This document shows positions 5,981-29,625 of a DNA stretch of 32,000 bases, in pieces (position 1 is the stretch's first letter; each line of letters begins with the position of its first letter). This DNA is from an uncultured Bacilli bacterium (GTDB taxonomy: Bacteria > Bacillota_I > Bacilli_A > RF39 > UBA660). The stretch is taken from positions 3,609-35,608 of the forward strand of contig CAKONI010000003.1 of NCBI GenBank assembly GCA_934097105.1, read 5' to 3'. The translations under genes and the position numbers were made by a program. The notes below the pieces were generated by a model. That model saw nothing but the letters and a program-made list of their open reading frames with translations. It did no database searches and was not told where the DNA came from.

Positions 5981-6904
5981 ATGGAAATAATATTACATGA
6001 TACGGCGAAGAAAATAAATTATTTTAACTTATTTGATTTTTTAAGTAAGATAAAGTTAAATGCTAATGTTTTGGAACATTTGGAAGAAACTAATCAAAAT
6101 TTTGATAATTATTTTAAAAAGTTGGCAAAATATGATGATGAGTTTATACTTTATTTTTGGATAAGTTTGGCTTATGAGGAAATTAAGAATAATAATTATG
6201 TTGAGAATCATACTTTTAGTAATTTAGATTTGGATATTAAAGATGTTTTTTTTGATAATCTTAATATAAGTCATAGTAGGATTCATAATATACATAAGTT
6301 TGTTATGAAAGATTCTGATAAAAAAGAGGATGCTGGTCATTATAGAAAAGATGATGTTAGGGTAAGTTATGTTGGGAAAGATTATGAAGAGATATTTTGG
6401 TATGGCGCGGAGCCTGAGGATATAAAGAAGTTTATGAATGCATTTATTGAAGTTTATAAGACTAATAATATGTCTTTTATTGATTCTAATCCTTTTTTGA
6501 AAAGTTCGCTTATTCATTTGTTATTTTTGAAAATTCATCCTTATTCTGATGGGAATGGGAGAACTTCTAGAATATTACATAATATAAAGTTTACTGAAGC
6601 ACTTAATAAAATATATAAAATGAATTTGAAGATATGTCCGGTTAATTTGTCTAAGAGTATAAATCTTTGTAAACCTACATATGTAGATATATTGGATAGT
6701 ATTTATTTTGATCTTGATCATGATAATAATGAGCAAATAAATAGATGGTTTAACTTTTTGCTTAATATGTATGATGAACAGTTGTTTATGAATTCTAATA
6801 TGATAAATAATATGGATGATGTAATTGAGAGGATTCAAAATATTAAAGATAAATGGGATAATGATAAAATTGTACAATTTAAAAAGCCACGCATTAGGTA
6901 TTAA
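5981..6904 (+). CDS. Fic/DOC family protein (putative AMPylase)
   Basis: 307 aa. Canonical Fic active-site loop HPYSDGNGRTSR (codons 6536-6571) fits HxFx(D/E)GNGRxxR, with Y in place of F. Confidence 0.8.
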   Translation: MEIILHDTAKKINYFNLFDFLSKIKLNANVLEHLEETNQNFDNYFKKLAKYDDEFILYFWISLAYEEIKNNNYVENHTFSNLDLDIKDVFFDNLNISHSRIHNIHKFVMKDSDKKEDAGHYRKDDVRVSYVGKDYEEIFWYGAEPEDIKKFMNAFIEVYKTNNMSFIDSNPFLKSSLIHLLFLKIHPYSDGNGRTSRILHNIKFTEALNKIYKMNLKICPVNLSKSINLCKPTYVDILDSIYFDLDHDNNEQINRWFNFLLNMYDEQLFMNSNMINNMDDVIERIQNIKDKWDNDKIVQFKKPRIRY

Positions 6905-8471: not shown

Positions 8472-8491
8472 AGAAAAAGGTCTAATGACCT
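8472..8491 (-). terminator. Short intrinsic terminator after the surface-protein (pseudo)gene
   Basis: AGGTC atta GACCT hairpin (8478-8491) overlapping the stop codon, followed on the minus strand by TTTTTCTTTT. Confidence 0.45.
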
Positions 8492-9741
8492 AATTTAATT
8501 TTTTTCTATAAACTATGTATCCTCCGATTGATACTACTGATATGATTTCTAGCATTAAGTAAGTCATAATATTATCACTTGTTTTAGGATTTTTTATTTC
8601 TTCATTTTTATAACTTATGCTAAATTTAGTAGTTGCAGTATTTTTATCATTAAATACAACCTTTAAGGTATGGCTTCCTACTGATAAATTATCTAAATAG
8701 TTTTTCTTAAATGTTAAAATTGTACTACCACTTTTTGAGGTATAATTTTTGTAATCAACTAGTTTTCCGTCTATGTAAACTTTTCCACCTTTAAATAAAT
8801 CATAGTTTGCATTTATTTCAAATGTTAGATTTTTGTCTTTATTGATTACATATTTTTGGTTAACACCTTTGATGAATTTATATTCTTTCTTTATTTTGTT
8901 TTCATTTTCATTTTGATTTTGATTTTCATTTTCGTTTGCGTATTTGAAAGTAAAATTATATGTGCATATAGTGCAATAATCTGTTCTTGTTTCATTAATT
9001 ATATTATCAATTTCACCATCATAAGTAAGTTTTGCACCAGTATATTTGGTATGAGTTCCTGAATAATTAGCACTTTTGTTATTTTTGGCATTAACTACTG
9101 ATATTACTGCTATGTTTTTATCTTTATTACCTGTTATTTTTATAATTGCTTCATCTTTATTGTCAGTTACTAGTAAACCATCATTAACAACTTTATAATA
9201 TAAAGTTTTTGTTAAATCCACGAAGGTTTTTAGGCCATTAGTATTTACTAAAATCAATTACATGATCGCCCTTGCTTAGGTCAATAGTGCCTTCTGAGGT
9301 GATTCTTTCATAAATATTTTCAACTTTTGTATTAACAACAGTATGTGTCCTTTCAAGTTTAATTTTTAATGTTCCATTAAATTTATCTTTATTCAAATTA
9401 AATGAACCATTTCCTATAGCATAACGCCATCTATTTATAGTTATTCTAACTTTTCTAGGGTCTACTACAGAACCTGTACTTTCAGGTGGATATTCTCTTA
9501 TTGAAAATTCATAATTTGCCTCATTTAAGTCAATTTTCATGTTATTACTGATGTCTGATATAAGCGTACCATTTTTAAATAATTGAATATTACCTATTTT
9601 GTCGTAATCAACATATCCGTCATGAATTGTACCTTCTTCAAAATTAAGAGTAACTTCATTTTTAGTATCAGCATTTACATTAATAACAAAGGTGCATAAA
9701 CTAATTAGAAGTACCAATAATAATTTATTAATTTTTTTCAT
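8490..9741 (-). pseudogene. Cell-wall-anchored surface protein split by a frameshift (ORFs 9238..9741 and 8490..9257)
   Basis: The upstream ORF has a signal peptide (MKKINKLLLVLLISLCTFVINVNA) and no anchor. The downstream ORF has no signal peptide, a TTG start immediately after an in-frame TAA, and ends in KNPKTSD, a TM segment and RKKLN. The two reading frames overlap by 20 nt (9238-9257). Confidence 0.55.
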
Positions 9742-11597: not shown

Positions 11598-13265
11598 TTA
11601 ATTTCTTTTTTTTAAATTATCCTCTATTTCATCAAAGTATTTATCTAATATATCTATATTGTTATTGAATAGTTCCATAAATTTTAAAATGGTAAATTCT
11701 GCTTTAAAGGTTAGTTTTCCTTCGTAAATATCGCTAAATATTATTTTACTGTCTTGGAATGTTTCTCCTGGCATGACTTTGTAATTACCATGGGAAATGG
11801 AGTTTCTAATTCCTTCGATGATGCTTTTATTTTTTATATATAGTTCTCTGTTATTGTAATATTTAAGTTTATTTTCTAGGTTTTTAATATCCTTTTTTAT
11901 AGTTTCCATGTCATTACATATTTTAATTAAGTTATTTTTAATTGTTGCTTTTGCTTTTTGGTTTTTTGCTTGAGAGATGTTGCAATAGTTATTTAAGTTA
12001 TTGTTATAACGTGCTATAAGAGTTAATAGTCTTTTGTTTAAAGATTTTAGTTTAGTATCTATTTCGGAATAGAAACTGTCATTATTATCATTTTTGATGA
12101 TACTATTATCATCAAATTTTAGTTTGGAGAAATCAAGTCCCTTCCCATCATTGTTTTTATATATTTTTTCTAGAGGAATACTGAAAAGGCTATTAAAGAC
12201 ACTGATAAGGGATGCAACTAGATTATCGTAGTTTATATAAAAACTTCCCCCATATTTTTTTGCTAGGGAATCTACTATAGAATTTAGATTGGTGGAACCA
12301 CTTTTGGAAATTTCTTCAATTATGTAAAGATTGGTAAGATTTGCAAGTAAGGGATTAAATTCATTGTAGGATGATTCTATTTTTCTTTGAACTTCATTTG
12401 TAATGGTTGATACTTGATTGTCGTAGGTGTATCTTTCTTGAGTAAGTATAGTATTTTGGATTAAGGGGATAAGTTCCATAATACTTTTGTACTTGTTCAT
12501 TTTATAATAGTCAGCTTTTAATATATATCCATTTTCTTTATATTCTTTTCTTAAATTTTGTATGCTATTAAAGTCCATATTAGTGGTATTTTTTAATGTA
12601 TTTAGTTTTTTATTGAACTTATCTATTTCATATTTTTCTAGAAAATTGTTATCTTCTCGGGATAAATTAAAGTTAATGTTTGTACAATTGTTTATGACAT
12701 GTTTAATTTCTTCTGTGGATGTGATTTTTTTTGGTTTTTTGTCTTTAGAGATTTCATTTACAGTTATGTTTCTAGAATAGTTTTTAGTTTTTGTATAGAA
12801 AAAGTTATTACGAAGAGATGTGATTATAAATTTGGAAAGTTTATTAATATCGATTGAGATGTTTGTGTTTTCGACGTTAATAATTACTTCTTCTTTATCA
12901 AAATCTATTAAAAAATCTCCATGAGCAATTTTGTTTCTTAAGGTGGCTACGAGAGTTGAGCCATCTTTAAATTCATAGTTATCTATCATATAACCAGATG
13001 CCGTTTTTTCGGAAATTATAGATACACTTTTTTCTAATGAATCATTATATAGTTTGGATTCATAATTTAAGTTTCCGGTATTTTCTACGATATTTTCTTT
13101 AATACTCAAGAATATATTAGAGATTGCTCCCATTTTAGCAGCGCATAAAAACCTTTTTTCTGTTATATAATTTGGATGATTAATTTCATATAGATTATTT
13201 AACATAAAACCTACAAATTCTTTTGTGCCTAAATAATAATTTGCAACAAATTTCAAGTAGTCCAT
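11598..13265 (-). CDS. Single-chain protein with two HEPN-type Rx4H motifs (putative RNase-type toxin or defence effector)
   Basis: 555 aa from the ATG at 13265. Motif 1 is TLRNKIAHGDF (R..H codons at 12921-12938). Motif 2 is GIRNSISHGNY (11790-11807). Both fit R-N-x-I-[AS]-H-G-[DN]-[FY] and lie about 375 residues apart. No signal peptide or TM segment. The TTG at 13310 used by the ORF track is the -35 box of the gene's own promoter. Confidence 0.5.
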   Translation of the reverse strand: MDYLKFVANYYLGTKEFVGFMLNNLYEINHPNYITEKRFLCAAKMGAISNIFLSIKENIVENTGNLNYESKLYNDSLEKSVSIISEKTASGYMIDNYEFKDGSTLVATLRNKIAHGDFLIDFDKEEVIINVENTNISIDINKLSKFIITSLRNNFFYTKTKNYSRNITVNEISKDKKPKKITSTEEIKHVINNCTNINFNLSREDNNFLEKYEIDKFNKKLNTLKNTTNMDFNSIQNLRKEYKENGYILKADYYKMNKYKSIMELIPLIQNTILTQERYTYDNQVSTITNEVQRKIESSYNEFNPLLANLTNLYIIEEISKSGSTNLNSIVDSLAKKYGGSFYINYDNLVASLISVFNSLFSIPLEKIYKNNDGKGLDFSKLKFDDNSIIKNDNNDSFYSEIDTKLKSLNKRLLTLIARYNNNLNNYCNISQAKNQKAKATIKNNLIKICNDMETIKKDIKNLENKLKYYNNRELYIKNKSIIEGIRNSISHGNYKVMPGETFQDSKIIFSDIYEGKLTFKAEFTILKFMELFNNNIDILDKYFDEIEDNLKKRN

Positions 13266-13281
13266 TGATATCACCATCAAG

Positions 13282-13310
13282 ATGATATCATAAAATTGCT
13301 TAGATGACAA
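13282..13310 (-). promoter_or_regulatory. Sigma-A promoter of the dual-HEPN gene
   Basis: Minus strand reads TTGTCA (13310-13305), 17-nt spacer, TATCAT (13287-13282), then GGTGA Shine-Dalgarno (13275-13271) and ATG at 13265. Confidence 0.55.
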
Positions 13311-13330
13311 TCATTTTTCTTTTTTGCATT

Positions 13331-13360
13331 AGAAAAAGTCCAACTTTATTGGACCTTTCT
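13331..13360 (-). terminator. Terminator-like hairpin just upstream of the dual-HEPN promoter
   Basis: Minus strand reads AGAAAGGTCCAA taaag TTGGACTTTTTCT. Core stem is GTCCAA/TTGGAC (13338-13343 with 13349-13354), followed by T5. Confidence 0.45.
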
Positions 13361-13564
13361 AAAACAGTTCTTTCTTGTACTATATAGAAATATATAATAA
13401 ATAAAGAAGTATGAAGATAATATATTTCTTACAGATAAGAAATATAATAAAGAAAGGAGTATCTTAGATGAGAACTAAAAACATCTAAGAACTCAAAATG
13501 AATTATTGTAAACCAAATTGCAAATTTTTTGATTTACATAATAATCATACAACTAAAGATAGTA

Positions 13565-13592
13565 AAAAAATGTCGATATTTGGACATTTTTT
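13565..13592 (-). terminator. Intrinsic terminator of the S8-protease operon
   Basis: Perfect 10-bp inverted repeat AAAAAATGTC / GACATTTTTT with an 8-nt loop. It starts 6 nt after the stop at 13598. Confidence 0.7.
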
Positions 13593-13597
13593 ACTTT

Positions 13598-15262
13598 TTA
13601 TTTTTTTATAAATATTGCTTTTATTTTATGATTTGCTTTTATGTTTTTGAAGGTATATTTTGTAGTTGTTTTTACTTTTTTTCCATCTACGTATAAAGAT
13701 TTTATTTTATATCCTTTGTTAGGTGTAATTTTAATTGTTAAGTTTGTTCCATAATTTACGGTTTTTCCTTTTGTTATATAACCTTTTCCTTCTTTTGTTG
13801 TTGTTATTTTGTATGTGTTAATCATTTTTTTCGCTTTGTTGTAATAGGAATTATATATATTTTTAACTTCTTTTATACTGGTTGCTTTATTTATTTTGTT
13901 AATTCCTTCGTTTACTATTGGTTTTACTTTCTTTTGATTGTATTTTTTATTATTTAAAAATGCTTTTAGATAACCGATATATTTATTTTTAGCGGTTTTT
14001 AGTTCTTGTTTTAAGGTAGGAATGTCTTTGAGTATTCCTTCTAGATTAATAACGAAAAATTCGGAAACTTCAAATTCATAAATGGCATTTTCATAATATT
14101 CTTGGGCTACTTCAAGTATGTATTTAATTCTATAATAATTGTATCCAGAATATTTGCTTGAGTCTAAATAGTTAAGACTTATCTTGTATACTTCATTTTG
14201 AAGTCTTTGTTTGCTGGCATTAGAAAGTTTTTTAAATTTAATACCTGTTACTTTTATTAAATTGTCTTTGGCATTTTCAAATATATTTTCTAATTCACTA
14301 ACGGAATCTGATGAATAAATTTCGGCACAGGCATCATAAAGGATGTCTACTGCTTCTTGGTTTTCTTCTCCTGTTGGTACATAAACACTATAGTAATAAT
14401 AGTCTTGAAGCAAAGAAGTAAAGCTATCTTTTATATCATATACTTCGTTATTGGTATAGATTTTTTTATATAAATCTATATCTCTATATTTATATTCTTT
14501 TCCATTAAGTCTCCATATAATTTCATCATATGTTTCGCTTTCTTCTTGTAGTGTATATTTGTTTTTAGTATTTTTTGGACTAATTCTGTTTGTATGTGCT
14601 TTTGTTTTATCATATTCATAAATAGCGCTATCATAACTAAAATTTAAGTCTACATCAGAAATGTTTTCAGTGAAAATTACAAGTGCTTTGGCATTGGCAT
14701 TTGCTAGGTTTGAATAATCAGAGACGTTATTATAATTATCATAGATTTCTTCTTTTAAACGGTCTATTTTACTTTTGTAATAGTCGTTGTAACCATTAAA
14801 ACTTAAGTTTTCAAAGGCAAGATCTATATTGAGTATTGCTCTTTCTTTTATATCCTCAAAGTTTGTTTTTTCTTTTACAACTTCATAGTTAAAGTCCATT
14901 AGTGATGCTAGGTATAACTGTTTTTGATAAATAGTTTCATTATATTCAATAATTCCGTATGGTAATAGTTCAGTGTCAATTATATCTTCATAAACGACTG
15001 CATTATTTATAGTTTCCATTAATTGATTATAGGAATCATCTATTAGTTTTTTGATTTCATTGGTATATTTGATGTTTTGTGATTCATCATATAGTTCATC
15101 TATTCTTTCACTTAATTTTTGTTTTATATAATCAAGGTTATTATCAACCATAAATGGTCTATAGGTTTTTGATACTAATGGAGTACTTTCTTTGGCGAAG
15201 ACATTAAAGGGAAATATTGTAATTAGAAGTGCAATTACTAGTAATAAACTTAATTTTTTCAT
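13598..15262 (-). CDS. Secreted protein of unknown function with a C-terminal InlB-B-repeat-like beta domain
   Basis: 554 aa. Signal peptide MKKLSLLLVIALLITIFPFNVFA. Long Tyr/Asn/Glu-rich helical region. The last ~70 aa (YKITTTKEGKGYITKGKTVNYGTNLTIKITPNKGYKIKSLYVDGKKV...KIKAIF) resemble Listeria/Bacteroides-type B-repeat domains, judged from memory. The start lies 4 nt after the S8 stop. Confidence 0.5.
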   Translation of the reverse strand: MKKLSLLLVIALLITIFPFNVFAKESTPLVSKTYRPFMVDNNLDYIKQKLSERIDELYDESQNIKYTNEIKKLIDDSYNQLMETINNAVVYEDIIDTELLPYGIIEYNETIYQKQLYLASLMDFNYEVVKEKTNFEDIKERAILNIDLAFENLSFNGYNDYYKSKIDRLKEEIYDNYNNVSDYSNLANANAKALVIFTENISDVDLNFSYDSAIYEYDKTKAHTNRISPKNTKNKYTLQEESETYDEIIWRLNGKEYKYRDIDLYKKIYTNNEVYDIKDSFTSLLQDYYYYSVYVPTGEENQEAVDILYDACAEIYSSDSVSELENIFENAKDNLIKVTGIKFKKLSNASKQRLQNEVYKISLNYLDSSKYSGYNYYRIKYILEVAQEYYENAIYEFEVSEFFVINLEGILKDIPTLKQELKTAKNKYIGYLKAFLNNKKYNQKKVKPIVNEGINKINKATSIKEVKNIYNSYYNKAKKMINTYKITTTKEGKGYITKGKTVNYGTNLTIKITPNKGYKIKSLYVDGKKVKTTTKYTFKNIKANHKIKAIFIKK

Positions 15263-15266
15263 ATTA

Positions 15267-17816
15267 TCACCTGTAAACCTTTCCGCTTATATTTGAATAA
15301 GTTCCTACTAATCTTTTTCCGTTTATTGTTTTGTATCCGGCAACTTTATAATAGTATGTTTTCTTTTTTGTTACTTTTTTGTCATTATAGTATAGTGTTT
15401 TATTAGAACTAATTCTTTTTATTAATTTATATCCAGAATTTTTGCTGGTGGATCTATAGATAAAGTATCCATCTGCACTTGGAATTTTACTATAAGAAAC
15501 TTTGATGTATCCTTTTTTGTTATATAGTGATAAAGTTGTTTTTGGAAGTGTTGGTTTTATGCTTATAACATTAGAATAACCAAATACTTTTTTACTATTA
15601 TATCTTGCTTTTACTCTATAGTAGTAAGTAGTATTCATATTTAATTTTTTATCTGTGTAATAATTATAATTGTCTTTTGTTGTATATATAACTTTGTATG
15701 GTCCATTTTTTGAAGTTGCTCTTTCGATAATATAGTTTTCTGCAACATAAATTTTGCTCCATTTTATGCTGGCTGTATTGTAGGTGTTTCCGTTAGTTTT
15801 AAGACTATATATTGAGCCTTCGTAGTTATTTCTACCTGTGTAAAGTTTAATTGTTTTTGTGGCCTTTACTCCGTTATCTGATGCTTTCACTGTTGCGGTT
15901 ATGTAGGTATAGCCTGCTCTTTTGGCAGTTACTTTTCCGTTTTGATCGATAGAGGCTACTCTTGGATTTGTACTTTCCCAGATAATAGTTGGTTCATAAG
16001 AAAGTTTTTTACCATAGATTCCTGTTACTTTGGTTTTGTAGGTATAACTTTCTCCATTTAGTAATTTACTTATTGGATTTATGAATTCAACTTTTTTAGG
16101 TAGTTCTCTTACTGTAACATCGAAACTATCAGTTAAAGTACCGTCATAATTTTTAACAGTAACTGTTGTTGTCCCTGCATTTTTGGCTACTAGAGCATAA
16201 CCAAGTAGGTTTTCTTCTATGTCTGCAACTTTTCTGTTTGATGATGAGTAGTAAATTTCTGGACTTTTTAATGTTTCTGGTGCGTATGATGCTGAAAGGT
16301 TGAATATATCACCAATGTAAAGTAAATTTTTTGTTTCAGCAAATTTAAGTTTAGTTAATTGTTCAGTGGCTTTTACTGTAACGGTAGTACTTGTTTTTAA
16401 GCCATCACAAGATGCTGTAATTGTGGTTGTCCCTTCGTTTATACCTCTTACGATTCCATTTGAGTCTACTGTGGCAATTCTTGGATTTGCGCTTTCCCAA
16501 GTAACTTCTTTTAGGGCTGTTGCAGGCCTTGTTAAAACTTCAAGTGAAATATCATCATCAAGTGGTACTATTTCTTCTTCTGTTTTCATTTTAATTGATG
16601 TGACTGTGCTATTTTTGCTTGCCATTTTGGCTGCTAAAACGGCATCTTTCGCATTAATGATACCATATGCTGTATAGTTGTTGAATACATTTTGAGATGT
16701 TGTGCCACAAAGGATGTTGTAAACTTGGCTAGGGGTTAAATTTGGATTTGCATCTAGCATTAGGGCTGCAACGGCACTGACAATTGGTGATGCCATAGAA
16801 GTTCCGCTCATTCTTCCGTATATATCTCCTGGAAGTGTGCTATAAATGTTATTTCCAGGTGCAGTTACGTCTTTATATTTACCATAATCTGACCAGTAGT
16901 TTGCTTTATCGTATTCGTTTGAGGAATTAACGCTAATAACTTCTTTAAAATCGCTTGGTGATGTGAAACTATTACTAGCATTGTTTCCTGCTGCTGCAAC
17001 TAAAACAACGCCTTTATTGTATGCATCTTTAACTGCTGCTTCGATTACTCTATCTCTTCCTAGTCCTCCGAAACTCATGTTGATTACTTTTGCACCATTT
17101 TCTGTTGAGTATTTTATTGCATGAGCGATATCAGCACTATATAAAAATCCTTCTTCTGATGTTCCAACTACCATGACTTCAACTAAGTCGTTATTAAATC
17201 CTGAGGCAACTCCAGCACTACCGAGTTTGTTACCGTAGGTTGCACCGATAATTCCTGCTACGTGGGTTCCATGTTCTTCAGTATCACTATCGGATGTAAG
17301 TACTTCTCCCCCACTGGTTATAGGGTAGTTGTCTCTATTTATTAAGTTTTTTTGGAGATCTTCATGGTAAACATCAACGCCAGAGTCAATAACTGCTACC
17401 TTAGTTTTTCTAGGTGTAGTAATAAGTCTCCAAGCGTCTAATGCTCTAAGTTTGTCAAACCAATAACTAGGTTTTGTGTCTATTATGGTGTTTTCTGAAA
17501 GTTTGTATTTATAGTTTGGCCCTGCGTACAAAACTTTACTGCTGTTTGAAAAGTCTTTGATGGCTTCTTTTAAAGTAGTATCATCAGAAATTGTGGCTTG
17601 TACAATTTTACTTTCATCTACTTTTATTATATTTTCTAAAGAGGCATCATTTCCTTCGACTATTTTATTAATAGTTTTATTTGAGGTGTCATCTTTAAAG
17701 ATTACAATAACTTCGTCTTTTTTATACTCCTTTCCTTTTAAGATATCATCTGCAAAAACAATAGGTGTATTAATAGCACATATGGCTATTAATAAAAATA
17801 AAATTTTCTTTCTCAT
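15267..17816 (-). CDS. Secreted subtilisin-family (S8) serine protease with Big_2 and FN3 domains
   Basis: Signal peptide is present. Catalytic triad contexts are VAVIDSGVD, HGTHVAGIIG and GTSMASPIVSA (Ser codon at 16797-16799). Three Big_2-like units follow (ATVDSNGIVRGINEGTTTITA, VADIEEN...AGTTTVTV, ASIDQNGKVTAKRAGYTYITATV). Two FN3-like units end in YYYRVKA and YYYKVAG. The second ATG (17816) is preferred for Shine-Dalgarno spacing; the ORF track starts at 17822. Confidence 0.85.
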   Translation of the reverse strand: MRKKILFLLIAICAINTPIVFADDILKGKEYKKDEVIVIFKDDTSNKTINKIVEGNDASLENIIKVDESKIVQATISDDTTLKEAIKDFSNSSKVLYAGPNYKYKLSENTIIDTKPSYWFDKLRALDAWRLITTPRKTKVAVIDSGVDVYHEDLQKNLINRDNYPITSGGEVLTSDSDTEEHGTHVAGIIGATYGNKLGSAGVASGFNNDLVEVMVVGTSEEGFLYSADIAHAIKYSTENGAKVINMSFGGLGRDRVIEAAVKDAYNKGVVLVAAAGNNASNSFTSPSDFKEVISVNSSNEYDKANYWSDYGKYKDVTAPGNNIYSTLPGDIYGRMSGTSMASPIVSAVAALMLDANPNLTPSQVYNILCGTTSQNVFNNYTAYGIINAKDAVLAAKMASKNSTVTSIKMKTEEEIVPLDDDISLEVLTRPATALKEVTWESANPRIATVDSNGIVRGINEGTTTITASCDGLKTSTTVTVKATEQLTKLKFAETKNLLYIGDIFNLSASYAPETLKSPEIYYSSSNRKVADIEENLLGYALVAKNAGTTTVTVKNYDGTLTDSFDVTVRELPKKVEFINPISKLLNGESYTYKTKVTGIYGKKLSYEPTIIWESTNPRVASIDQNGKVTAKRAGYTYITATVKASDNGVKATKTIKLYTGRNNYEGSIYSLKTNGNTYNTASIKWSKIYVAENYIIERATSKNGPYKVIYTTKDNYNYYTDKKLNMNTTYYYRVKARYNSKKVFGYSNVISIKPTLPKTTLSLYNKKGYIKVSYSKIPSADGYFIYRSTSKNSGYKLIKRISSNKTLYYNDKKVTKKKTYYYKVAGYKTINGKRLVGTYSNISGKVYR

Positions 17817-17843
17817 ATCCATACCTTCTTTCTATCTAAGAAA

Positions 17844-17958: not shown

Positions 17959-19698
17959 TCATAATCTACTATTTTTCTCAGAGAAACTGGACTTTTGTAA
18001 TTCATTTTCTGGTATATTTATAACCTTGCCACCTCTTGGATATAATTGTTTATCCCCAAAAACAATCCATATTATATCAAGATTTTTATTAGGCACTTTA
18101 CCCCAGCCGTCAGTAAAAATGATTTTATTTTCAGTTCGTCTAGAAAAAGCATCAACCGCAACACTAAAATCAGTGCCACCACCACCTAAAAATTCCATAT
18201 CTTCTATATCTTTTTCACTTCTAATATCATTAAAACCATAAAATTTTGTATCAAAGCAACCGACTTTTAACTTAGAGTGTTTTAATATATTTTTACACTC
18301 CATAAGAAAATTACGTAATAATTCTTCATCAATAGAACCACTAGTGTCAAGAACAATTTCAGTCTCTGCAAAAGGTAACTCTTCCAATCTTGGAACTATA
18401 ACCCCATCTTCAATCTCAGCATTTCTGTAAGACCAATCAAGATCATACTTAGTAGCCTCTTTAAGTAAATATCTCCAGTCTAATAAAGGTTTAGATTTTC
18501 CAGATGAGTCAACATCTCTAGTATCACTACTAGTTAAATCACCATAACTCATTGGTTGTGATTCAATTTCCTTTTTTAAATCTTCAAGGGCTTTTTTCTT
18601 TTCTCTTCTATTTTCAGAGAAAGCACCTTTTTCACCCATTTCTTTTATTTTTTTCTTTAGTTCCTCTATACTACTATTTTCAGAATTTTTATCTTCATTT
18701 GAATTTTTTTCATTTTCTTCAAGTTCTTTTAAAGCATCATCCCATAGACTATGAGTATCGTGACCAACATCTTTTCTTTTGTTATTAGATGATTCGGATA
18801 AGTTTGAATTATCTTTTGATCTATTCTCATTTTTGGTTCCATCTTGTGATTTTGAATCTTTATTTTGTGGATCAGAATTCCCATTTTGCGAATTTGAATC
18901 TTTGTTTTGTGAATCAGAATCTCCATTTTGTGATTTTGAATCTTTATTTTGTGGATCAGAATTCACATTTTGTGATTTTGAATTCTTATTTTGTGAATCA
19001 GAATTTTCATCTTGTGAATTTGAGTCTTTGTTTTGTGGATCAGAATTCCCATTTTGTGATTTTGAATCTTTGTTTTGTGAATCAGAATTTTCATCTTGTG
19101 AATTTGAATCTTTGTTTTGTGAATCAGAATCTCCATCTTGTGAATTTGAGTCTTTGTTTTGTGAATCAGAATCTCCATCTTGTGAATTTGAATCTTTGTT
19201 TTGTGAATCAGAATTTTCATCTTGTGAATTTGAATCGTTGTTTGGTGAATCAAAATTTTCATCTTGATTATCATTTTCATTATTACTTTGATTTTGTTTT
19301 TCTTTCTCTTCTTCTATTAATTTGTCATAAAATTCTTCAGCATCATAATTTATAGCATCAGGCATGTCAACCCCATTTGGCATAATTGGAAGGCCATCCC
19401 TTTTCAAAAGTTGGTTTATAACTGCATCAGTTGCAACATTCCAAAAATACCTATCCTTATCTTTACTTCTAGGAACATGATCAAAAGCAATATGACAAAC
19501 TTCATGTGCGAGTACAAAAACTTGCTCATTGGTGTCCAAACTACTTAGAAAATCAGGATTATAATAAATATTTTTACCATTAGTAGACGCAGTGGATATG
19601 TTGTTATCCTCAATATAATTGGTATTAGCAACTATACTACCAAAGAAAGGATATTTAACAAGCATTTTTCTTTTTAAAGCACCAATATCATAACTCAT
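17959..19698 (-). CDS. HExxH putative metallopeptidase domain, Ser/Asp/Asn/Gln repeat linker, VWA-like domain (DUF2201-type architecture)
   Basis: 579 aa. N-terminus has PFFG, LAHEVCHIAFDH (HEVCH codons at 19492-19506) and NVATDAVIN. The C-terminus has the MIDAS-like motif VLDTSGSI (18334-18348), GGGTDF and IFTDGWG. About 150 aa of 14-aa repeats lie between the two domains. Confidence 0.75.
   Translation of the reverse strand: MSYDIGALKRKMLVKYPFFGSIVANTNYIEDNNISTASTNGKNIYYNPDFLSSLDTNEQVFVLAHEVCHIAFDHVPRSKDKDRYFWNVATDAVINQLLKRDGLPIMPNGVDMPDAINYDAEEFYDKLIEEEKEKQNQSNNENDNQDENFDSPNNDSNSQDENSDSQNKDSNSQDGDSDSQNKDSNSQDGDSDSQNKDSNSQDENSDSQNKDSKSQNGNSDPQNKDSNSQDENSDSQNKNSKSQNVNSDPQNKDSKSQNGDSDSQNKDSNSQNGNSDPQNKDSKSQDGTKNENRSKDNSNLSESSNNKRKDVGHDTHSLWDDALKELEENEKNSNEDKNSENSSIEELKKKIKEMGEKGAFSENRREKKKALEDLKKEIESQPMSYGDLTSSDTRDVDSSGKSKPLLDWRYLLKEATKYDLDWSYRNAEIEDGVIVPRLEELPFAETEIVLDTSGSIDEELLRNFLMECKNILKHSKLKVGCFDTKFYGFNDIRSEKDIEDMEFLGGGGTDFSVAVDAFSRRTENKIIFTDGWGKVPNKNLDIIWIVFGDKQLYPRGGKVINIPENELQKSSFSEKNSRL
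18823..19266 (-). repeat. In-frame 42-nt tandem repeat (21-nt sub-period), about 10.5 copies
   Basis: The unit TTGTGAATCAGAATTTTCATCTTGTGAATTTGAATCTTTGTT recurs with few substitutions. It encodes DS(N/K)SQ(D/N)(E/G)(N/D)SD(S/P)QNK. No stop codons occur in several frames, which explains the stacked ORFs in the track. Confidence 0.9.
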
Positions 19699-19702
19699 AG
19701 TA

Positions 19703-20077
19703 TTATTCCTTTATATGTGCTACTAACGAATAAATTTCTTCATTAATAGTATTTTTGTTTATTTCATTTGCCGTAATGATTATTACACAATTTTTTGGTA
19801 ACTCTAAAGTCCCTACTTTTCTATATTTCAATAATTCTAAAAACTTGACTTGTTCATCCTTTGAAATAGAATCTATTCTATCTATTACTAACAATTTCGC
19901 ATCACTATTACTTTTTATTAGTCTAAACCATTCAGGTTCATTTATATCTAATAACTCTTCACTACTTACATCTGCTGAAATAACAACACTGTCAGGTATA
20001 TCAAAAAGAAAATCTTCCAAAATAGGCGCTACATTATTACTTATATATGTTGATAATAACTCTCTCTTTTCTTTCAT
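19703..20077 (-). CDS. Small P-loop-less AAA+-like protein (Walker-B and sensor-1 half only)
   Basis: 124 aa. KLLVIDRIDSISKDEQVKFLELLKYRKVGTLELPKNCVIIITAN aligns with KLHIVFLDELTNALPSIQGIAFNIVLDKEVNGIWKLPSNARIVAAGN of the upstream ATPase. No GxxxxGK[ST] motif is present, and DE is replaced by DR. The start overlaps the upstream stop (TAATG). The stop lies 4 nt before the next start. Confidence 0.5.
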   Translation of the reverse strand: MKEKRELLSTYISNNVAPILEDFLFDIPDSVVISADVSSEELLDINEPEWFRLIKSNSDAKLLVIDRIDSISKDEQVKFLELLKYRKVGTLELPKNCVIIITANEINKNTINEEIYSLVAHIKE

Positions 20078-22038
20078 TATTTTCTCACTCCATTTTCCAT
20101 ATTAGATTCCAAAATCTTTTCCATTTTTTCTTCATCACCATGACACCACAAAGCATCAAAAATCTTTCTAAACTCTGGCCCCATTTCAAAAGCAAAATTT
20201 CTTGCTTTACTAAGATTTTCATCATCTACTCTAGAAAGACCCATCACTGTAGCATATCTTTCTGAGGTATTAAGCATTTCGATATCTCCCTTACTATAAT
20301 TATCATTTAGCACATCTTCAAGTGTTATAACCCTTTGTCTACAAAATGCTACGAATTCTTTTGTTATCTCTTCTCCAACTAAACTTCTTAACATCTCAGG
20401 ATTCTCTGTACTATAAAGCATTTTTGATGCCATTTCCCATTTCCTAGGATCAGCATTTGGTTTCTCACCATCATACTCACTTCTTAATACTTTATCTCTT
20501 TTAAATGCTATAAATGAATAAATTGCTGGATGTATATTATGCGTACTTGCCCACTTTAGCCAGTTTTCTACTGTTGTTTTTATATAAACATGTGCAAATC
20601 TATTAAACAAAGGCTCTGCCATTTGATTTGCTGCCAAACTATCTTTCATATCATTTCCCGCTGCCACTATTCTAGCGTTTGATGGAAGTTTCCAAATTCC
20701 ATTTACTTCTTTATCTAAAACAATGTTAAATGCTATACCTTGAATACTAGGAAGTGCATTAGTAAGTTCATCTAGAAATACTATATGTAACTTATCGGGT
20801 TCATTCTCACATTTTTCATTTATCTTTTTAAGCCAAGATGGCATAACATCTATCATCTCACCAGTTGTAGCATTATATACACTTTTACCATTTAAACTTT
20901 CTGGTGTAGCATTACGAAGATATATAATTACACAATCAGAATCAAATTGCTTAACTCTAGCACTCTTTCCCTCAGAAGAAGCCCCATGCAAAAATACTGG
21001 AATATCACTGTCAATTGCACCTTTGATCATTTCTTCCTCACTTATCTTATTAAAGTTAAGGTTATATGGATTCCTCATTCTTTCTCTCCTTTTTTCATTT
21101 TCTTTTTTCATTTTTTCATTTTCTTTTTTCATTTTTTCTATTTCTTCTCTTTGCATTTTAAAATTTTCTTTAGCTTGCTCCATTTCTTCATTTGTTAGTT
21201 CTTCATCACCACTCTCTTGTTCTTTTTTCTCTTTTAAATAATCATCAAAAGACATTGTTTCTCCAGAAACTTTTGTTATCTCATTTGAAGGTATTATTTC
21301 ATTAATGAAATATCTATTTAAATACATTTTCACATCACTATTTTGATAGTTGTTTCTGATGCTATCTACTTTTATTCCTGATACTAATACATCTTTGCTT
21401 ATAAAATTATTTTCATTTTCATCGTAAATCCACTTTATTGGTGAAACTGAAAACCATATATAATTATACGAATCAGCAGATTCTCCATTAGAAAAAATAG
21501 CTTTTCTTGATTTAGAATTTGGAACTACTCTTATATACTTTTTACCATCAAATTCATATTCAGAATAATAGTCAGGTAAAAAACCATCACAATCATCAAA
21601 TTGAGTTGAGTCCACTGTATAAGACTTATTTGTTTTTGCCAAGCTACCATTTTGATAAGAAAACTCTAAAAAATCATTCAAATAACCATCAACTATTTCT
21701 TGAGGATATTCTCCATATGAAACTTCCTTAAGACCATCAACCATCGAAATATTAGCCTCATCATCAGGTATATTTGATATGACAGGTCTAATTCCACAAT
21801 AACCTTGATTATCATGAAGATTCGTAAAAGATCCTTCTAAACTATGAACCCAGTCATACTCTTTATTTTTATTCAAAGTAAGATAAAAACTTGTGCGAAA
21901 TTTATCGCCATATGTAAACTCTTTAATACCAAGAAATCTAGCAAAATCAGAAGTATTGCTTTCCTTATTTACCATTTTCCTTATAAAGTCTGACCCTCCT
22001 TGTTTCTCGTTAGGTAAACTAATTTCAATATTATTCAT
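20077..22038 (-). CDS. MoxR-like (AAA_5-type) ATPase with an N-terminal ~250-aa extra domain and a Glu/Lys coiled-coil linker
   Basis: 653 aa. Walker A is HGASSEGKS (20962-20985), Walker B is HIVFLDELT, and sensor-1 is RIVAAGN. The N-terminal region carries YGEYPQ, GIRPV, IKWIYDE and SDVKMYLNRYF, which I recall from DUF6273-type Firmicutes modules (unverified). AAGAGGTG Shine-Dalgarno precedes the start. Confidence 0.7.
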   Translation of the reverse strand: MNNIEISLPNEKQGGSDFIRKMVNKESNTSDFARFLGIKEFTYGDKFRTSFYLTLNKNKEYDWVHSLEGSFTNLHDNQGYCGIRPVISNIPDDEANISMVDGLKEVSYGEYPQEIVDGYLNDFLEFSYQNGSLAKTNKSYTVDSTQFDDCDGFLPDYYSEYEFDGKKYIRVVPNSKSRKAIFSNGESADSYNYIWFSVSPIKWIYDENENNFISKDVLVSGIKVDSIRNNYQNSDVKMYLNRYFINEIIPSNEITKVSGETMSFDDYLKEKKEQESGDEELTNEEMEQAKENFKMQREEIEKMKKENEKMKKENEKRRERMRNPYNLNFNKISEEEMIKGAIDSDIPVFLHGASSEGKSARVKQFDSDCVIIYLRNATPESLNGKSVYNATTGEMIDVMPSWLKKINEKCENEPDKLHIVFLDELTNALPSIQGIAFNIVLDKEVNGIWKLPSNARIVAAGNDMKDSLAANQMAEPLFNRFAHVYIKTTVENWLKWASTHNIHPAIYSFIAFKRDKVLRSEYDGEKPNADPRKWEMASKMLYSTENPEMLRSLVGEEITKEFVAFCRQRVITLEDVLNDNYSKGDIEMLNTSERYATVMGLSRVDDENLSKARNFAFEMGPEFRKIFDALWCHGDEEKMEKILESNMENGVRK

Positions 22039-29467: not shown

Positions 29468-29544
29468 TGGTCGGGAAGACAGGATTTGAACCTGCAACCC
29501 CTTGGTCCCAAACCAAGTGCTCTACCAAGTTGAGCCACTTCCCG
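29468..29544 (-). tRNA. tRNA-Pro (anticodon TGG)
   Basis: 77 nt with encoded CCA. Acceptor stem CGGGAAG/CTTCCCG. Anticodon arm CTTGG-TTTGGGA-CCAAG. T-arm GGTTCAAATCC. Confidence 0.95.
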
Positions 29545-29548
29545 AAGA

Positions 29549-29625
<77 letters not shown>

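Follow-up and report, generated by a model that had tools for sequence, protein, structure and literature searches.

The window analysed here, a stretch of 32,000 nucleotides (nt) from an uncultured Bacilli bacterium (contig CAKONI010000003.1), comes from the chromosome of a low-GC spore-former and has genes for MutS, SpoIVA, Fic and FtsY/SRP54 close by. On its reverse strand lies a gene for a protein of 555 amino acids (aa) that carries two copies of the HEPN ribonuclease (RNase) motif; we refer to it as the two-HEPN protein. HEPN RNases are the effectors of many immune and toxin systems, among them Cas13, Csm6, RNase L, ApeA and DARNA, and two chains are normally needed for each active site. 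The longest open reading frame (ORF) in the ORF listing for the locus begins at a TTG and would encode 570 aa (11598..13310, minus strand). An ATG at 13265 is backed by an identical protein from the public collections (P0001, 555 aa) and by the N-termini of all homologues, and is the correct start. A first-pass annotation of this DNA, made from the letters alone, had called the protein cytoplasmic, which is reasonable, as no transmembrane segment is predicted (highest KD19, 1.32).

The two motifs read LRNKIAHGDF (aa 109-118) and IRNSISHGNY (aa 486-495). Two extended motifs about 375 residues apart in a protein of 555 aa had been the central claim of the first-pass annotation, and it holds: the arginines, R110 and R487, are 377 residues apart. 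The coordinates given with that claim span the six-residue cores, not the ten-residue strings. Both cores, RNKIAH (110-115) and RNSISH (487-492), have the form that defines the HEPN superfamily, R-x4-6-H with a polar N, D or H after the R. Across the six reading frames of the window, the pattern RN.I[AS]HG[DN][FY] matches exactly twice, each time within this ORF. Of only four histidines in the protein, two belong to the motifs, and residue shuffles of its sequence yield at least two RN...H strings at a frequency of 5.5e-5. The two-motif pattern is not due to chance.

Conservation is centred on the same residues. No variation is seen, among 34 homologues reaching down to 23% identity, at R110, N111, K112, H115, G116, R487, N488, I490, H492 and G493. 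Among 139 members made non-redundant at 70%, the most conserved positions are R487 and H492 (99%), H115 (98%) and R110 (97%); next come G493 and G116 (96% for the latter), N479 and the pair K56/E57. Both R-x4-H motifs are in place in 177 of the 186 members of at least 500 aa, so that the conservation of R and H in both motifs across homologues, on which the first-pass annotation had staked its reading, is borne out. The exceptions include four proteins with K for R in motif 1 and four that have lost His, two of them in one motif and two in both. Joint loss of His is more frequent than independence predicts (Fisher p 5e-4; the two double-loss proteins are possibly related), which hints that the two motifs work together.

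Direct scans of the window protein gave a weak Pfam match to HEPN_MAE_28990 (E 0.05, aa 65-127) and, in PADLOC, only CARF_HEPN (E 0.082, 10 bits). Roughly half of the homologues bear a precomputed, weak tag for PF18736 (HEPN pEK499_p136). In homologue P0062 this match falls on the C-terminal module (aa 445-538, E 8.5e-5, 22.8 bits), and PF18736 is likewise the top Pfam match of the family consensus of that module (E 0.0038, 17.4 bits). The founder of PF18736 is WP_000528932.1, a 166-aa “HEPN family nuclease” on the E. coli plasmid pEK499, for which 118 relatives of 92-200 aa were gathered. Aligned by hhalign with an 87-sequence alignment of pEK499_p136, the C-module scored 89-91% (90.7% at E 1.3e-6; E 1-2e-6 overall) across 53 columns that span the helix, RNS[IV]AH, the beta-hairpin (I.F.D) and the start of the last helix. 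The N-module scored 93-94% against the C-module (E about 1e-7) and only 9.7% against pEK499_p136 directly, there in the correct register, with RNK.AH on RNS.AH and the helix-2 KE on PKE. Negative controls (the middle domain and reversed alignments) scored 0.1-1.4%. Through its C-module, the protein thus has significant profile similarity to an established HEPN family, and these comparisons support homology between the N- and C-modules, and of both with a HEPN family. A comparison with the HEPN clan by hidden Markov model (HMM), which the first-pass annotation had proposed, succeeds in part: the profile-profile link to PF18736 stands, and the direct Pfam scores are sub-threshold. The PDB was searched by sequence and profile, using the alignment of the full protein, the profile of the N-module and the consensus sequences of the C-module and the middle domain, and nothing meaningful came back.

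The AlphaFold2 (AF2) model of the full chain, built from a 34-sequence alignment, has a pLDDT (the local distance difference test, as predicted) of 86.3 and a predicted template-modelling score of 0.82; the isolated HEPN1 model has a pLDDT of 87.7. HEPN1 is modelled as helices at 3-26 and 37-54, a beta/short-helix insert at 60-99, a helix at 102-114 that ends in the motif, a beta-hairpin at 119-139 and a helix at 140-156. HEPN2 opens with two long helices (396-433 and 436-472) that make a coiled-coil hairpin. The motif closes the next helix (474-491), after which come a beta-hairpin (495-525) and a last helix (526-554). HEPN domains have been described as four-helix modules in which helix 3 ends in the motif, helix 2 carries an acidic residue and inserts are seen between helices 2 and 3; a beta-hairpin after the motif has been described for Csx1 (PMC3710099). 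In both modules, each of four helices, the motif does close the third helix, as read from the AF2 secondary structure and not from the 3-D packing. The pair K56-E57 is a candidate for the conserved helix-2 acidic residue. The central domain has a mean column identity of 0.18-0.22, against 0.31-0.36 for the motif regions. It has no recognisable relatives in Pfam, PDB or PHROG searches and is presumed to be a sensor or regulatory region.

Searches by structure were negative. With the whole model, Foldseek returned from the PDB and BFVD only coiled-coil noise due to helices 396-472, with no match at E <=0.001 (best in the PDB, E 0.69); with the isolated HEPN1 model, nothing in the PDB was significant (best E 1.0). 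No Cas13, Csm6, RnlA or HepT chain was among the matches listed in either search. The structural comparison with known HEPN proteins that the first-pass annotation had called for thus failed to confirm the HEPN fold, though the AF2 model is a confident one. The assignment to HEPN derives from the motif, the secondary-structure topology and profile-profile homology, not from a fold match.

Table 1. Features of the two-HEPN gene, its product and the convergent neighbour (positions in the window).
Feature	Coordinates	Strand	Basis and remarks
Coding sequence, two-HEPN protein, 555 aa	11598..13265	-	ATG at 13265; stop codon within range
HEPN1 module, aa 1-160	12786..13265	-	AF2 models; hhalign against C-module
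K56-E57, end of HEPN1 helix 2	13095..13100	-	94% and 93% conserved; aligns with PKE of pEK499_p136 (hhalign)
HEPN motif 1, core R110-N-K-I-A-H115, then G116	12921..12938	-	Ends helix 102-114; invariant in 34 homologues
Central domain, aa 161-395	12081..12785	-	Alpha/beta part, then helical part (AF2); most variable region of the protein
Third conserved island, FNSLFSY...GLDYSKLDLS, aa 349-385	12111..12221	-	Conservation peak; F357 and F361 invariant in 34 homologues
HEPN2 module, aa 396-555	11601..12080	-	AF2 model; hhalign against pEK499_p136; PF18736 top match
HEPN motif 2, core R487-N-S-I-S-H492, then G493	11790..11807	-	Ends helix 474-491; invariant in 34 homologues
Shine-Dalgarno GGTGA	13271..13275	-	5 nt upstream of ATG; TGGTGAT kept in the closest relative
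Sigma-70-like promoter, TTGTCA-N17-TATCAT with TG extension	13282..13310	-	10/12 plus TG; best score of the region
Hairpin and U-run, terminator-like	13329..13362	-	Just upstream of promoter; -13.9 kcal/mol, z -4.24
Helix-turn-helix (HTH) protein, 573 aa	9875-11596	+	N-terminal Xre/Cro-type HTH (Pfam HTH_26/HTH_3; phrog_8)

A k-mer-limited search for the family returned 67 clusters at 90% identity, mostly of 549-572 aa. When 1.84 billion representatives were searched exhaustively by HMM, 395 clusters at 50% identity came up with E <=1e-3, 308 of them at E <=1e-10 and 197 at E <=1e-30. Most are full-length, at about 540-600 aa, and the shorter matches look like contig-end fragments. A lookup of cluster members found no public name for any of them. 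The family is real, sizeable and unnamed, and has no curated model. Among 185,579 GTDB species representatives, relatives occur at 101 loci, nearly all in uncultured gut Bacilli (“Tenericutes” metagenome-assembled genomes, MAGs, of the UMGS or CAG type), with a few on short contigs binned as Bacteroidota. One MAG, CAKPKL01, has two diverged copies on separate contigs (L028 and L079); the other genomes of the set have one. An exact search with the HTH protein for strain-level presence or absence returned the same context only.

Leaving aside the identical P0001, the closest homologue is P0009 (53% identity), encoded at a syntenic locus (L091, NCBI assembly GCA_030525225.1) where the convergent gene for the 573-aa HTH protein is also present. 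This pair of loci offers a measure of the rate at which the family evolves. Compared with the 53% of the two-HEPN protein, identity between the window and L091 is 95% for SpoIVA, 86% for MutS, 84% for Fic, 77% for the S8 peptidase and 74% for the HTH protein; the Flg_new_2 surface protein, also at 53%, is the only neighbour equally divergent. The same holds across the family. In pairs of loci that share a syntenic neighbour, RecG is 55% identical where the two-HEPN proteins are 33% identical, DUF1848 75% against 38%, the phosphodiesterase 69% against 40% and ArsR 76% against 55%, and the neighbour is the more conserved in 80-100% of the pairs. Variability concentrates in aa 161-345 and in the coiled-coil arms (396-468), and the conserved islands are the two motif regions, HEPN1 helix 2 and aa 349-385. 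Catalytic residues that stay invariant while the remainder changes fast are what conflict-system proteins with a sensor usually show; relaxed constraint could be an alternative cause.

The genomic setting gives little sign of a partner. Across 78 loci, no neighbour family occurs at more than 12, which leaves the gene without the conserved, co-transcribed partner of a type II toxin-antitoxin system. Recurrent neighbours are housekeeping genes held by synteny (P-type ATPase, RecG, DUF1848, ArsR, phosphodiesterase, peptidase S41). Representatives of 144 neighbour clusters belong mainly to core metabolism, with sporadic defence genes: one retron-type reverse transcriptase, a type II methyltransferase, SspH, the PDC candidates PDC-S01 and PDC-M48B, and mad8. 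Enrichment in defence islands was considered and found weak, as the defence matches among these representatives are only sporadic. At the loci of P0060 (L007-L010, 9956-17668), downstream of RecG-DUF1848, a NERD/Zn-ribbon protein, GmrSD (DUF262) and the HsdR/HsdM of a type I restriction-modification (R-M) system stand beside the family member. The chromosomal position of the gene varies between sub-lineages.

The first-pass annotation had seen no repeat array and no cas genes in the window. This is correct, and a scan of the flanks extends it: no CRISPR-like array was found in the window or at 90 loci (+/-10 kb), the sole two matches being short coding repeats, and cas genes are likewise absent from these related loci. 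One lies at 18862-19030 of the window, within the ORF 17959-19698 (minus strand) of a DUF2201 (VWA-like) gene, and consists of three copies of the 18-mer TTTTGTGGATCAGAATTC about 84 nt apart. The other, at 9132-9435 of locus L035, just upstream of the two-HEPN gene, has seven copies of the 18-mer AACTGGACCAACAGGACC and is probably a coding repeat of the adjacent gene. A search of the window with Rfam at gathering thresholds found two tRNAs only and no RF03085; the other loci were not scanned with Rfam. The two tRNA genes are adjacent (29471-29544 and 29552-29625, minus strand). On its two sides the gene is separated from its neighbours by medians of 56 and 52 nt, and at one locus in four it abuts or overlaps a neighbour; with only about 55 nt between genes, an RNA gene would not fit. 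Judged from gene order, the two-HEPN protein appears to need no dedicated partner gene, no guide RNA and no RNA antitoxin. The description of a stand-alone protein with two motifs in one chain, given at first pass, thus stands.

The first-pass annotation had also remarked that the gene faces a large HTH protein. That neighbour is indeed present and convergent, its stop codon 1 nt from that of the two-HEPN gene, and its C-terminal region of about 500 aa belongs to no recognisable family. It is not a component of the system: no homologue lies within +/-4 genes of the two-HEPN gene at 79 other loci. We reject it as a partner, since it is convergent and kept only in the closest relative (L091). 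In one divergent clade (L063, L069, L071, L075, L082, L089 and L090; 7 of 79 loci) a gene for a 281-aa Xre-type HTH protein is found directly upstream and co-oriented, and its product may be a clade-specific regulator or antitoxin. The 281-aa and 573-aa proteins are unrelated outside the HTH.

The claim that the gene has its own promoter, shielded by an upstream terminator, fares less simply. Both elements are present and are conserved in L091, where the -35, the TG-extended -10 and the TGGTGAT Shine-Dalgarno are kept at the same spacing while the remaining spacer has diverged, and where compensatory changes (GTCCAA/TTGGAC to GTCTA/TAGAC) preserve the stem of the hairpin. Support is modest, and the number of sigma-70-like sites in this AT-rich region is not above the shuffle expectation; the hairpin is not listed by a consensus terminator scan of the region. 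The Shine-Dalgarno lies only about 7 nt past the -10, so the leader would be very short. The spacer upstream of the gene (13266-13597, about 330 nt) is unusually long against a family median of 56 nt. Within it is a further hairpin (13455-13500, minus strand; -14 kcal/mol, z -4.6) that is not conserved in L091, where a 494-aa gene fills the equivalent space; it could be a remnant or a small RNA.

Several other genes of the window deserve mention. Beyond the spacer, a gene for a secreted Flg_new_2-domain protein (13598-15262, minus strand; 554 aa) adjoins one for an S8 peptidase with Big_2 repeats (15267-17822, minus strand; 851 aa); the former is another fast-evolving gene beside the two-HEPN gene, and its product is probably surface-exposed. 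A trio at 17959-22038 (minus strand) encodes proteins of 653 and 124 aa, both with no Pfam match, and one of 579 aa (DUF2201_N/DUF2201), and is conserved in contig L001. Two overlapping ORFs at 8490-9257 (255 aa) and 9238-9741 (167 aa), both on the minus strand, correspond to a single 416-aa ORF in L091 (86% and 82.5% identity). Since contigs L001 and L002, from two independent samples, show the split too, the frameshift or gene split seems genuine; the product would be secreted or membrane-anchored. A Fic-domain protein of 307 aa (5981-6904, plus strand) is encoded next to SpoIVA.

The closest recognisable relative of the two-HEPN protein is pEK499_p136 (PF18736), with which it shares RNS[IV]AH at a helix end, then a beta-hairpin (..I.F.D..) and a final helix. 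That family has been predicted to be a conflict or defence RNase (PMC3710099). Its founders are single-domain proteins of about 160 aa, found mostly in Proteobacteria, often on plasmids or near R-M or Pgl genes, and they must dimerise. The two-HEPN protein, by contrast, has two modules in 555 aa, well beyond the 150-170 aa or so of a single PF18736 domain, with a novel central domain and a coiled-coil extension, and resides on the chromosomes of gut Bacilli. Because of this different architecture and the sub-threshold Pfam score, we do not file it under PF18736.

With Cas13, including the compact Cas13an and Cas13bt, the protein has in common two R-x4-H HEPNs per polypeptide and, presumably, one composite RNase site; Cas13an is also of similar compact size (PMC12165695). 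It differs in having no adjacent array and no detectable similarity in sequence or fold: Pfam, PADLOC and PDB sequence searches gave no Cas13 match, and none was among the Foldseek matches listed. The statement that two HEPN motifs in one chain are the hallmark of Cas13, as the first-pass annotation had it, was an overstatement, as CnuE of the CoCoNuT systems (type III-A) and the eukaryotic Swt1 also have HEPN dyads (PMC11090510, PMC3710099). CoCoNuT components share long coiled coils with the present protein as well (PMC11090510, PMC3710099). CnuE differs in that it acts within multi-gene McrBC-type operons and has a shortened RxH in its second HEPN, whereas both R-x4-H motifs are full here. 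The HEPN dyad of Swt1 is fused to PIN and inactive. No McrB or McrC family of a CnuB/CnuC-type operon is among the annotated genes of the window-type, P0030, P0060, P0009 and P0039 loci. Tandem HEPNs outside CRISPR are thus already known, and the family is not categorically new within the HEPN RNase superfamily.

A different kind of likeness is to single-gene effectors. AbiD and AbiF (Abi_2, PF07751) are single-gene HEPN abortive-infection effectors of low-GC Gram-positives, with one HEPN per chain. No Abi_2, AbiD or AbiF match was found in Pfam (E up to 10 for the window protein and module consensuses, up to 1 for 16 homologues) or in PADLOC; the comparison with AbiD/F is drawn from these Pfam and PADLOC negatives alone, and the absence of RF03085 applies to the window. 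In type, the modules are pEK499_p136-like, not AbiD/F-like. ApeA and DARNA (PD-T7-3) share their plan with the two-HEPN protein: each stands alone, at about 450-600 aa and with no partner gene, and joins a HEPN RNase to a sensor domain (in our protein, a presumed one) whose fold is unknown. They differ in having one HEPN per chain, so that the site forms by homo-oligomerisation, and the two-HEPN protein has no PADLOC match to either. Both are described as single-gene HEPN defence proteins; a nucleic-acid cue derived from the phage switches them on, and their targets are tRNA or phage RNA (bioRxiv 10.64898/2026.03.20.713152, 10.64898/2026.02.22.705581). By analogy, we adopt them as a functional model.

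We consider it moderately probable that the protein is an autonomous two-HEPN RNase with an intramolecular composite site, gated by a trigger and serving as a single-gene abortive-infection or stress effector. From the data above we infer RNase activity, the intramolecular site, trigger sensing and a defence role. The two modules would have arisen by internal duplication, or by fusion, of a pEK499_p136-like HEPN with a beta-hairpin after the R-x4-H. HEPN1 and HEPN2 flank a fast-evolving central domain of about 235 aa, and the first two helices of HEPN2 are stretched into the coiled-coil hairpin. R110/H115 and R487/H492 would together form one composite, metal-independent HEPN site, most likely as an intramolecular pseudo-dimer, as in Cas13, but with no guide RNA; such a site is expected by analogy with established HEPN enzymology (PMC3710099) and with the ApeA and DARNA preprints. 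The enzyme is probably latent; the variable central or coiled-coil region would sense a cue, be it a phage component or a stress signal, whereupon cleavage of cellular RNA, phage RNA or both would arrest growth, much as with ApeA or DARNA. On indirect evidence we find a defence role plausible, and an anti-phage or abortive-infection role is the one we prefer, at odds that are even or slightly better. The fast divergence relative to syntenic genes and the presence of some members beside NERD, GmrSD and type I R-M fit an accessory, arms-race character. A bolder version of this proposal, which we put forward tentatively and think more apt to be wrong than right, is that the family is an independent, non-CRISPR invention of the Cas13 design: two pEK499_p136-type HEPN genes fused, with an intramolecular site gated by a hypervariable protein sensor, as a new abortive-infection system widespread in uncultured gut Bacilli of the RF39/“Tenericutes” type.

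A number of observations weigh against the proposal of a trigger-gated effector. The Foldseek searches did not provide the similarity to a solved HEPN structure expected of a superfamily member; the hhalign matches are short, at 22-53 columns centred on the motif; and the PF18736 gathering cut-off of 26.6 bits is never reached (the best score is that of P0062, and the window protein has no reported match). Scans of the window protein with NCBIfam, PADLOC-DB v2 and PHROGs gave no significant match, so that the protein is not among the known or candidate defence proteins of PADLOC-DB v2. The union of R110/H115 and R487/H492 in one intramolecular site is an assumption. No relatives were found in 50,697 phage records, in 72,556 plasmids (tblastn) or in 2.9 M viral contigs (IMG/VR scan). 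The neighbours are mostly housekeeping genes, with defence genes only sporadic; the gene keeps its syntenic position within sub-lineages; and it is usually single-copy, 78 of 79 loci coming from distinct genomes. This chromosomal, syntenic, single-copy pattern would also fit a lineage-specific cellular RNase of uncultured gut Bacilli, constitutive or substrate-gated and active in RNA processing, turnover or stress, much as Las1 and Swt1 use HEPN in eukaryotes, and not an immune effector. The company of tRNA synthetases, TsaD, NrdD, FtsW, RecG, MutS and similar genes, and the tight, often overlapping spacing to co-oriented neighbours, which suggests operon membership, also speak for such an enzyme. 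We nonetheless think it unlikely, if a serious contender, because the gene evolves much faster than its syntenic housekeeping neighbours, changes chromosomal position across sub-lineages, has members with degenerate catalytic residues, occurs at only about 100 loci in the GTDB set, with some copies in defence islands, and has a fast-evolving central domain typical of conflict-system sensors.

The remaining explanations are less probable still. A toxin neutralised or repressed by an adjacent HTH protein would have precedent, as HEPN toxins with protein antitoxins are well known (HepT/MntA, PMC3710099), and there are HTH genes to fill the part: the 281-aa Xre-type gene upstream in one clade, and the 573-aa gene that abuts the 3' end in the window and in its closest relative. 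The latter, however, runs convergently and is not co-transcribed, and none of 79 other loci has a homologue of it near the two-HEPN gene. At 72 of 79 loci neither adjacent position (+/-1) is taken by an HTH gene, no family of partners is conserved, and the two HTH proteins have only the HTH in common. We regard a toxin-antitoxin pair as very unlikely. That the protein is a catalytically inert HEPN-like scaffold, or a binder of nucleic acids or nucleotides whose R and H residues hold a ligand, is yet more doubtful. In its favour, non-catalytic HEPN domains are numerous (PMC3710099), the structure searches matched no active HEPN, and a few members lack motif histidines; against this, the full RN-x3-HG signature, with its polar residue after R, is 97-99% conserved in both modules, and HEPN domains that retain the motif are predicted RNases, those tested having proved active (PMC3710099). 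We give least credence to a Cas13-like or pre-Cas13 RNA-guided RNase that came from an AbiD/F-type HEPN fusion and uses a guide or antitoxin RNA from another locus. The compact single chain with its two HEPN motifs would suit it, and Cas13 has been proposed to come from the fusion of two defence-associated HEPN genes, with an AbiD/F-type source (PMC12165695). The lack of arrays around the 90 loci, the narrow gaps and the absence of RF03085 from the window argue against it, as do the want of any Pfam or PADLOC match to Abi_2/AbiD/AbiF or Cas13 families, the absence of Cas13 chains from the Foldseek PDB matches listed, and pEK499_p136 as the closest HEPN family. The suggestion at first pass of a relative of the HEPN ancestors of Cas13 is accordingly not sustained by Pfam, PADLOC or Foldseek, and a link to Cas13 ancestry is unsupported. 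Roles as a toxin of a toxin-antitoxin pair and as a Cas13-like RNA-guided enzyme are both poorly supported.

The family places both HEPN halves in one chain outside CRISPR, in poorly studied gut bacteria. If active, it would provide a second natural intramolecular HEPN site beside that of Cas13, useful for understanding how such sites are gated, as well as a compact scaffold for RNase engineering. Independent fusion of the modules would mean that the kind of HEPN fusion from which Cas13 is postulated to have originated took place more than once. If the protein is instead a cellular RNase, it would mark a lineage-specific RNA-processing pathway. Whichever role proves right, the family merits a Pfam or NCBIfam entry. 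Further, an active enzyme would be a candidate for a new single-gene defence system in organisms whose immune repertoire is largely unknown.

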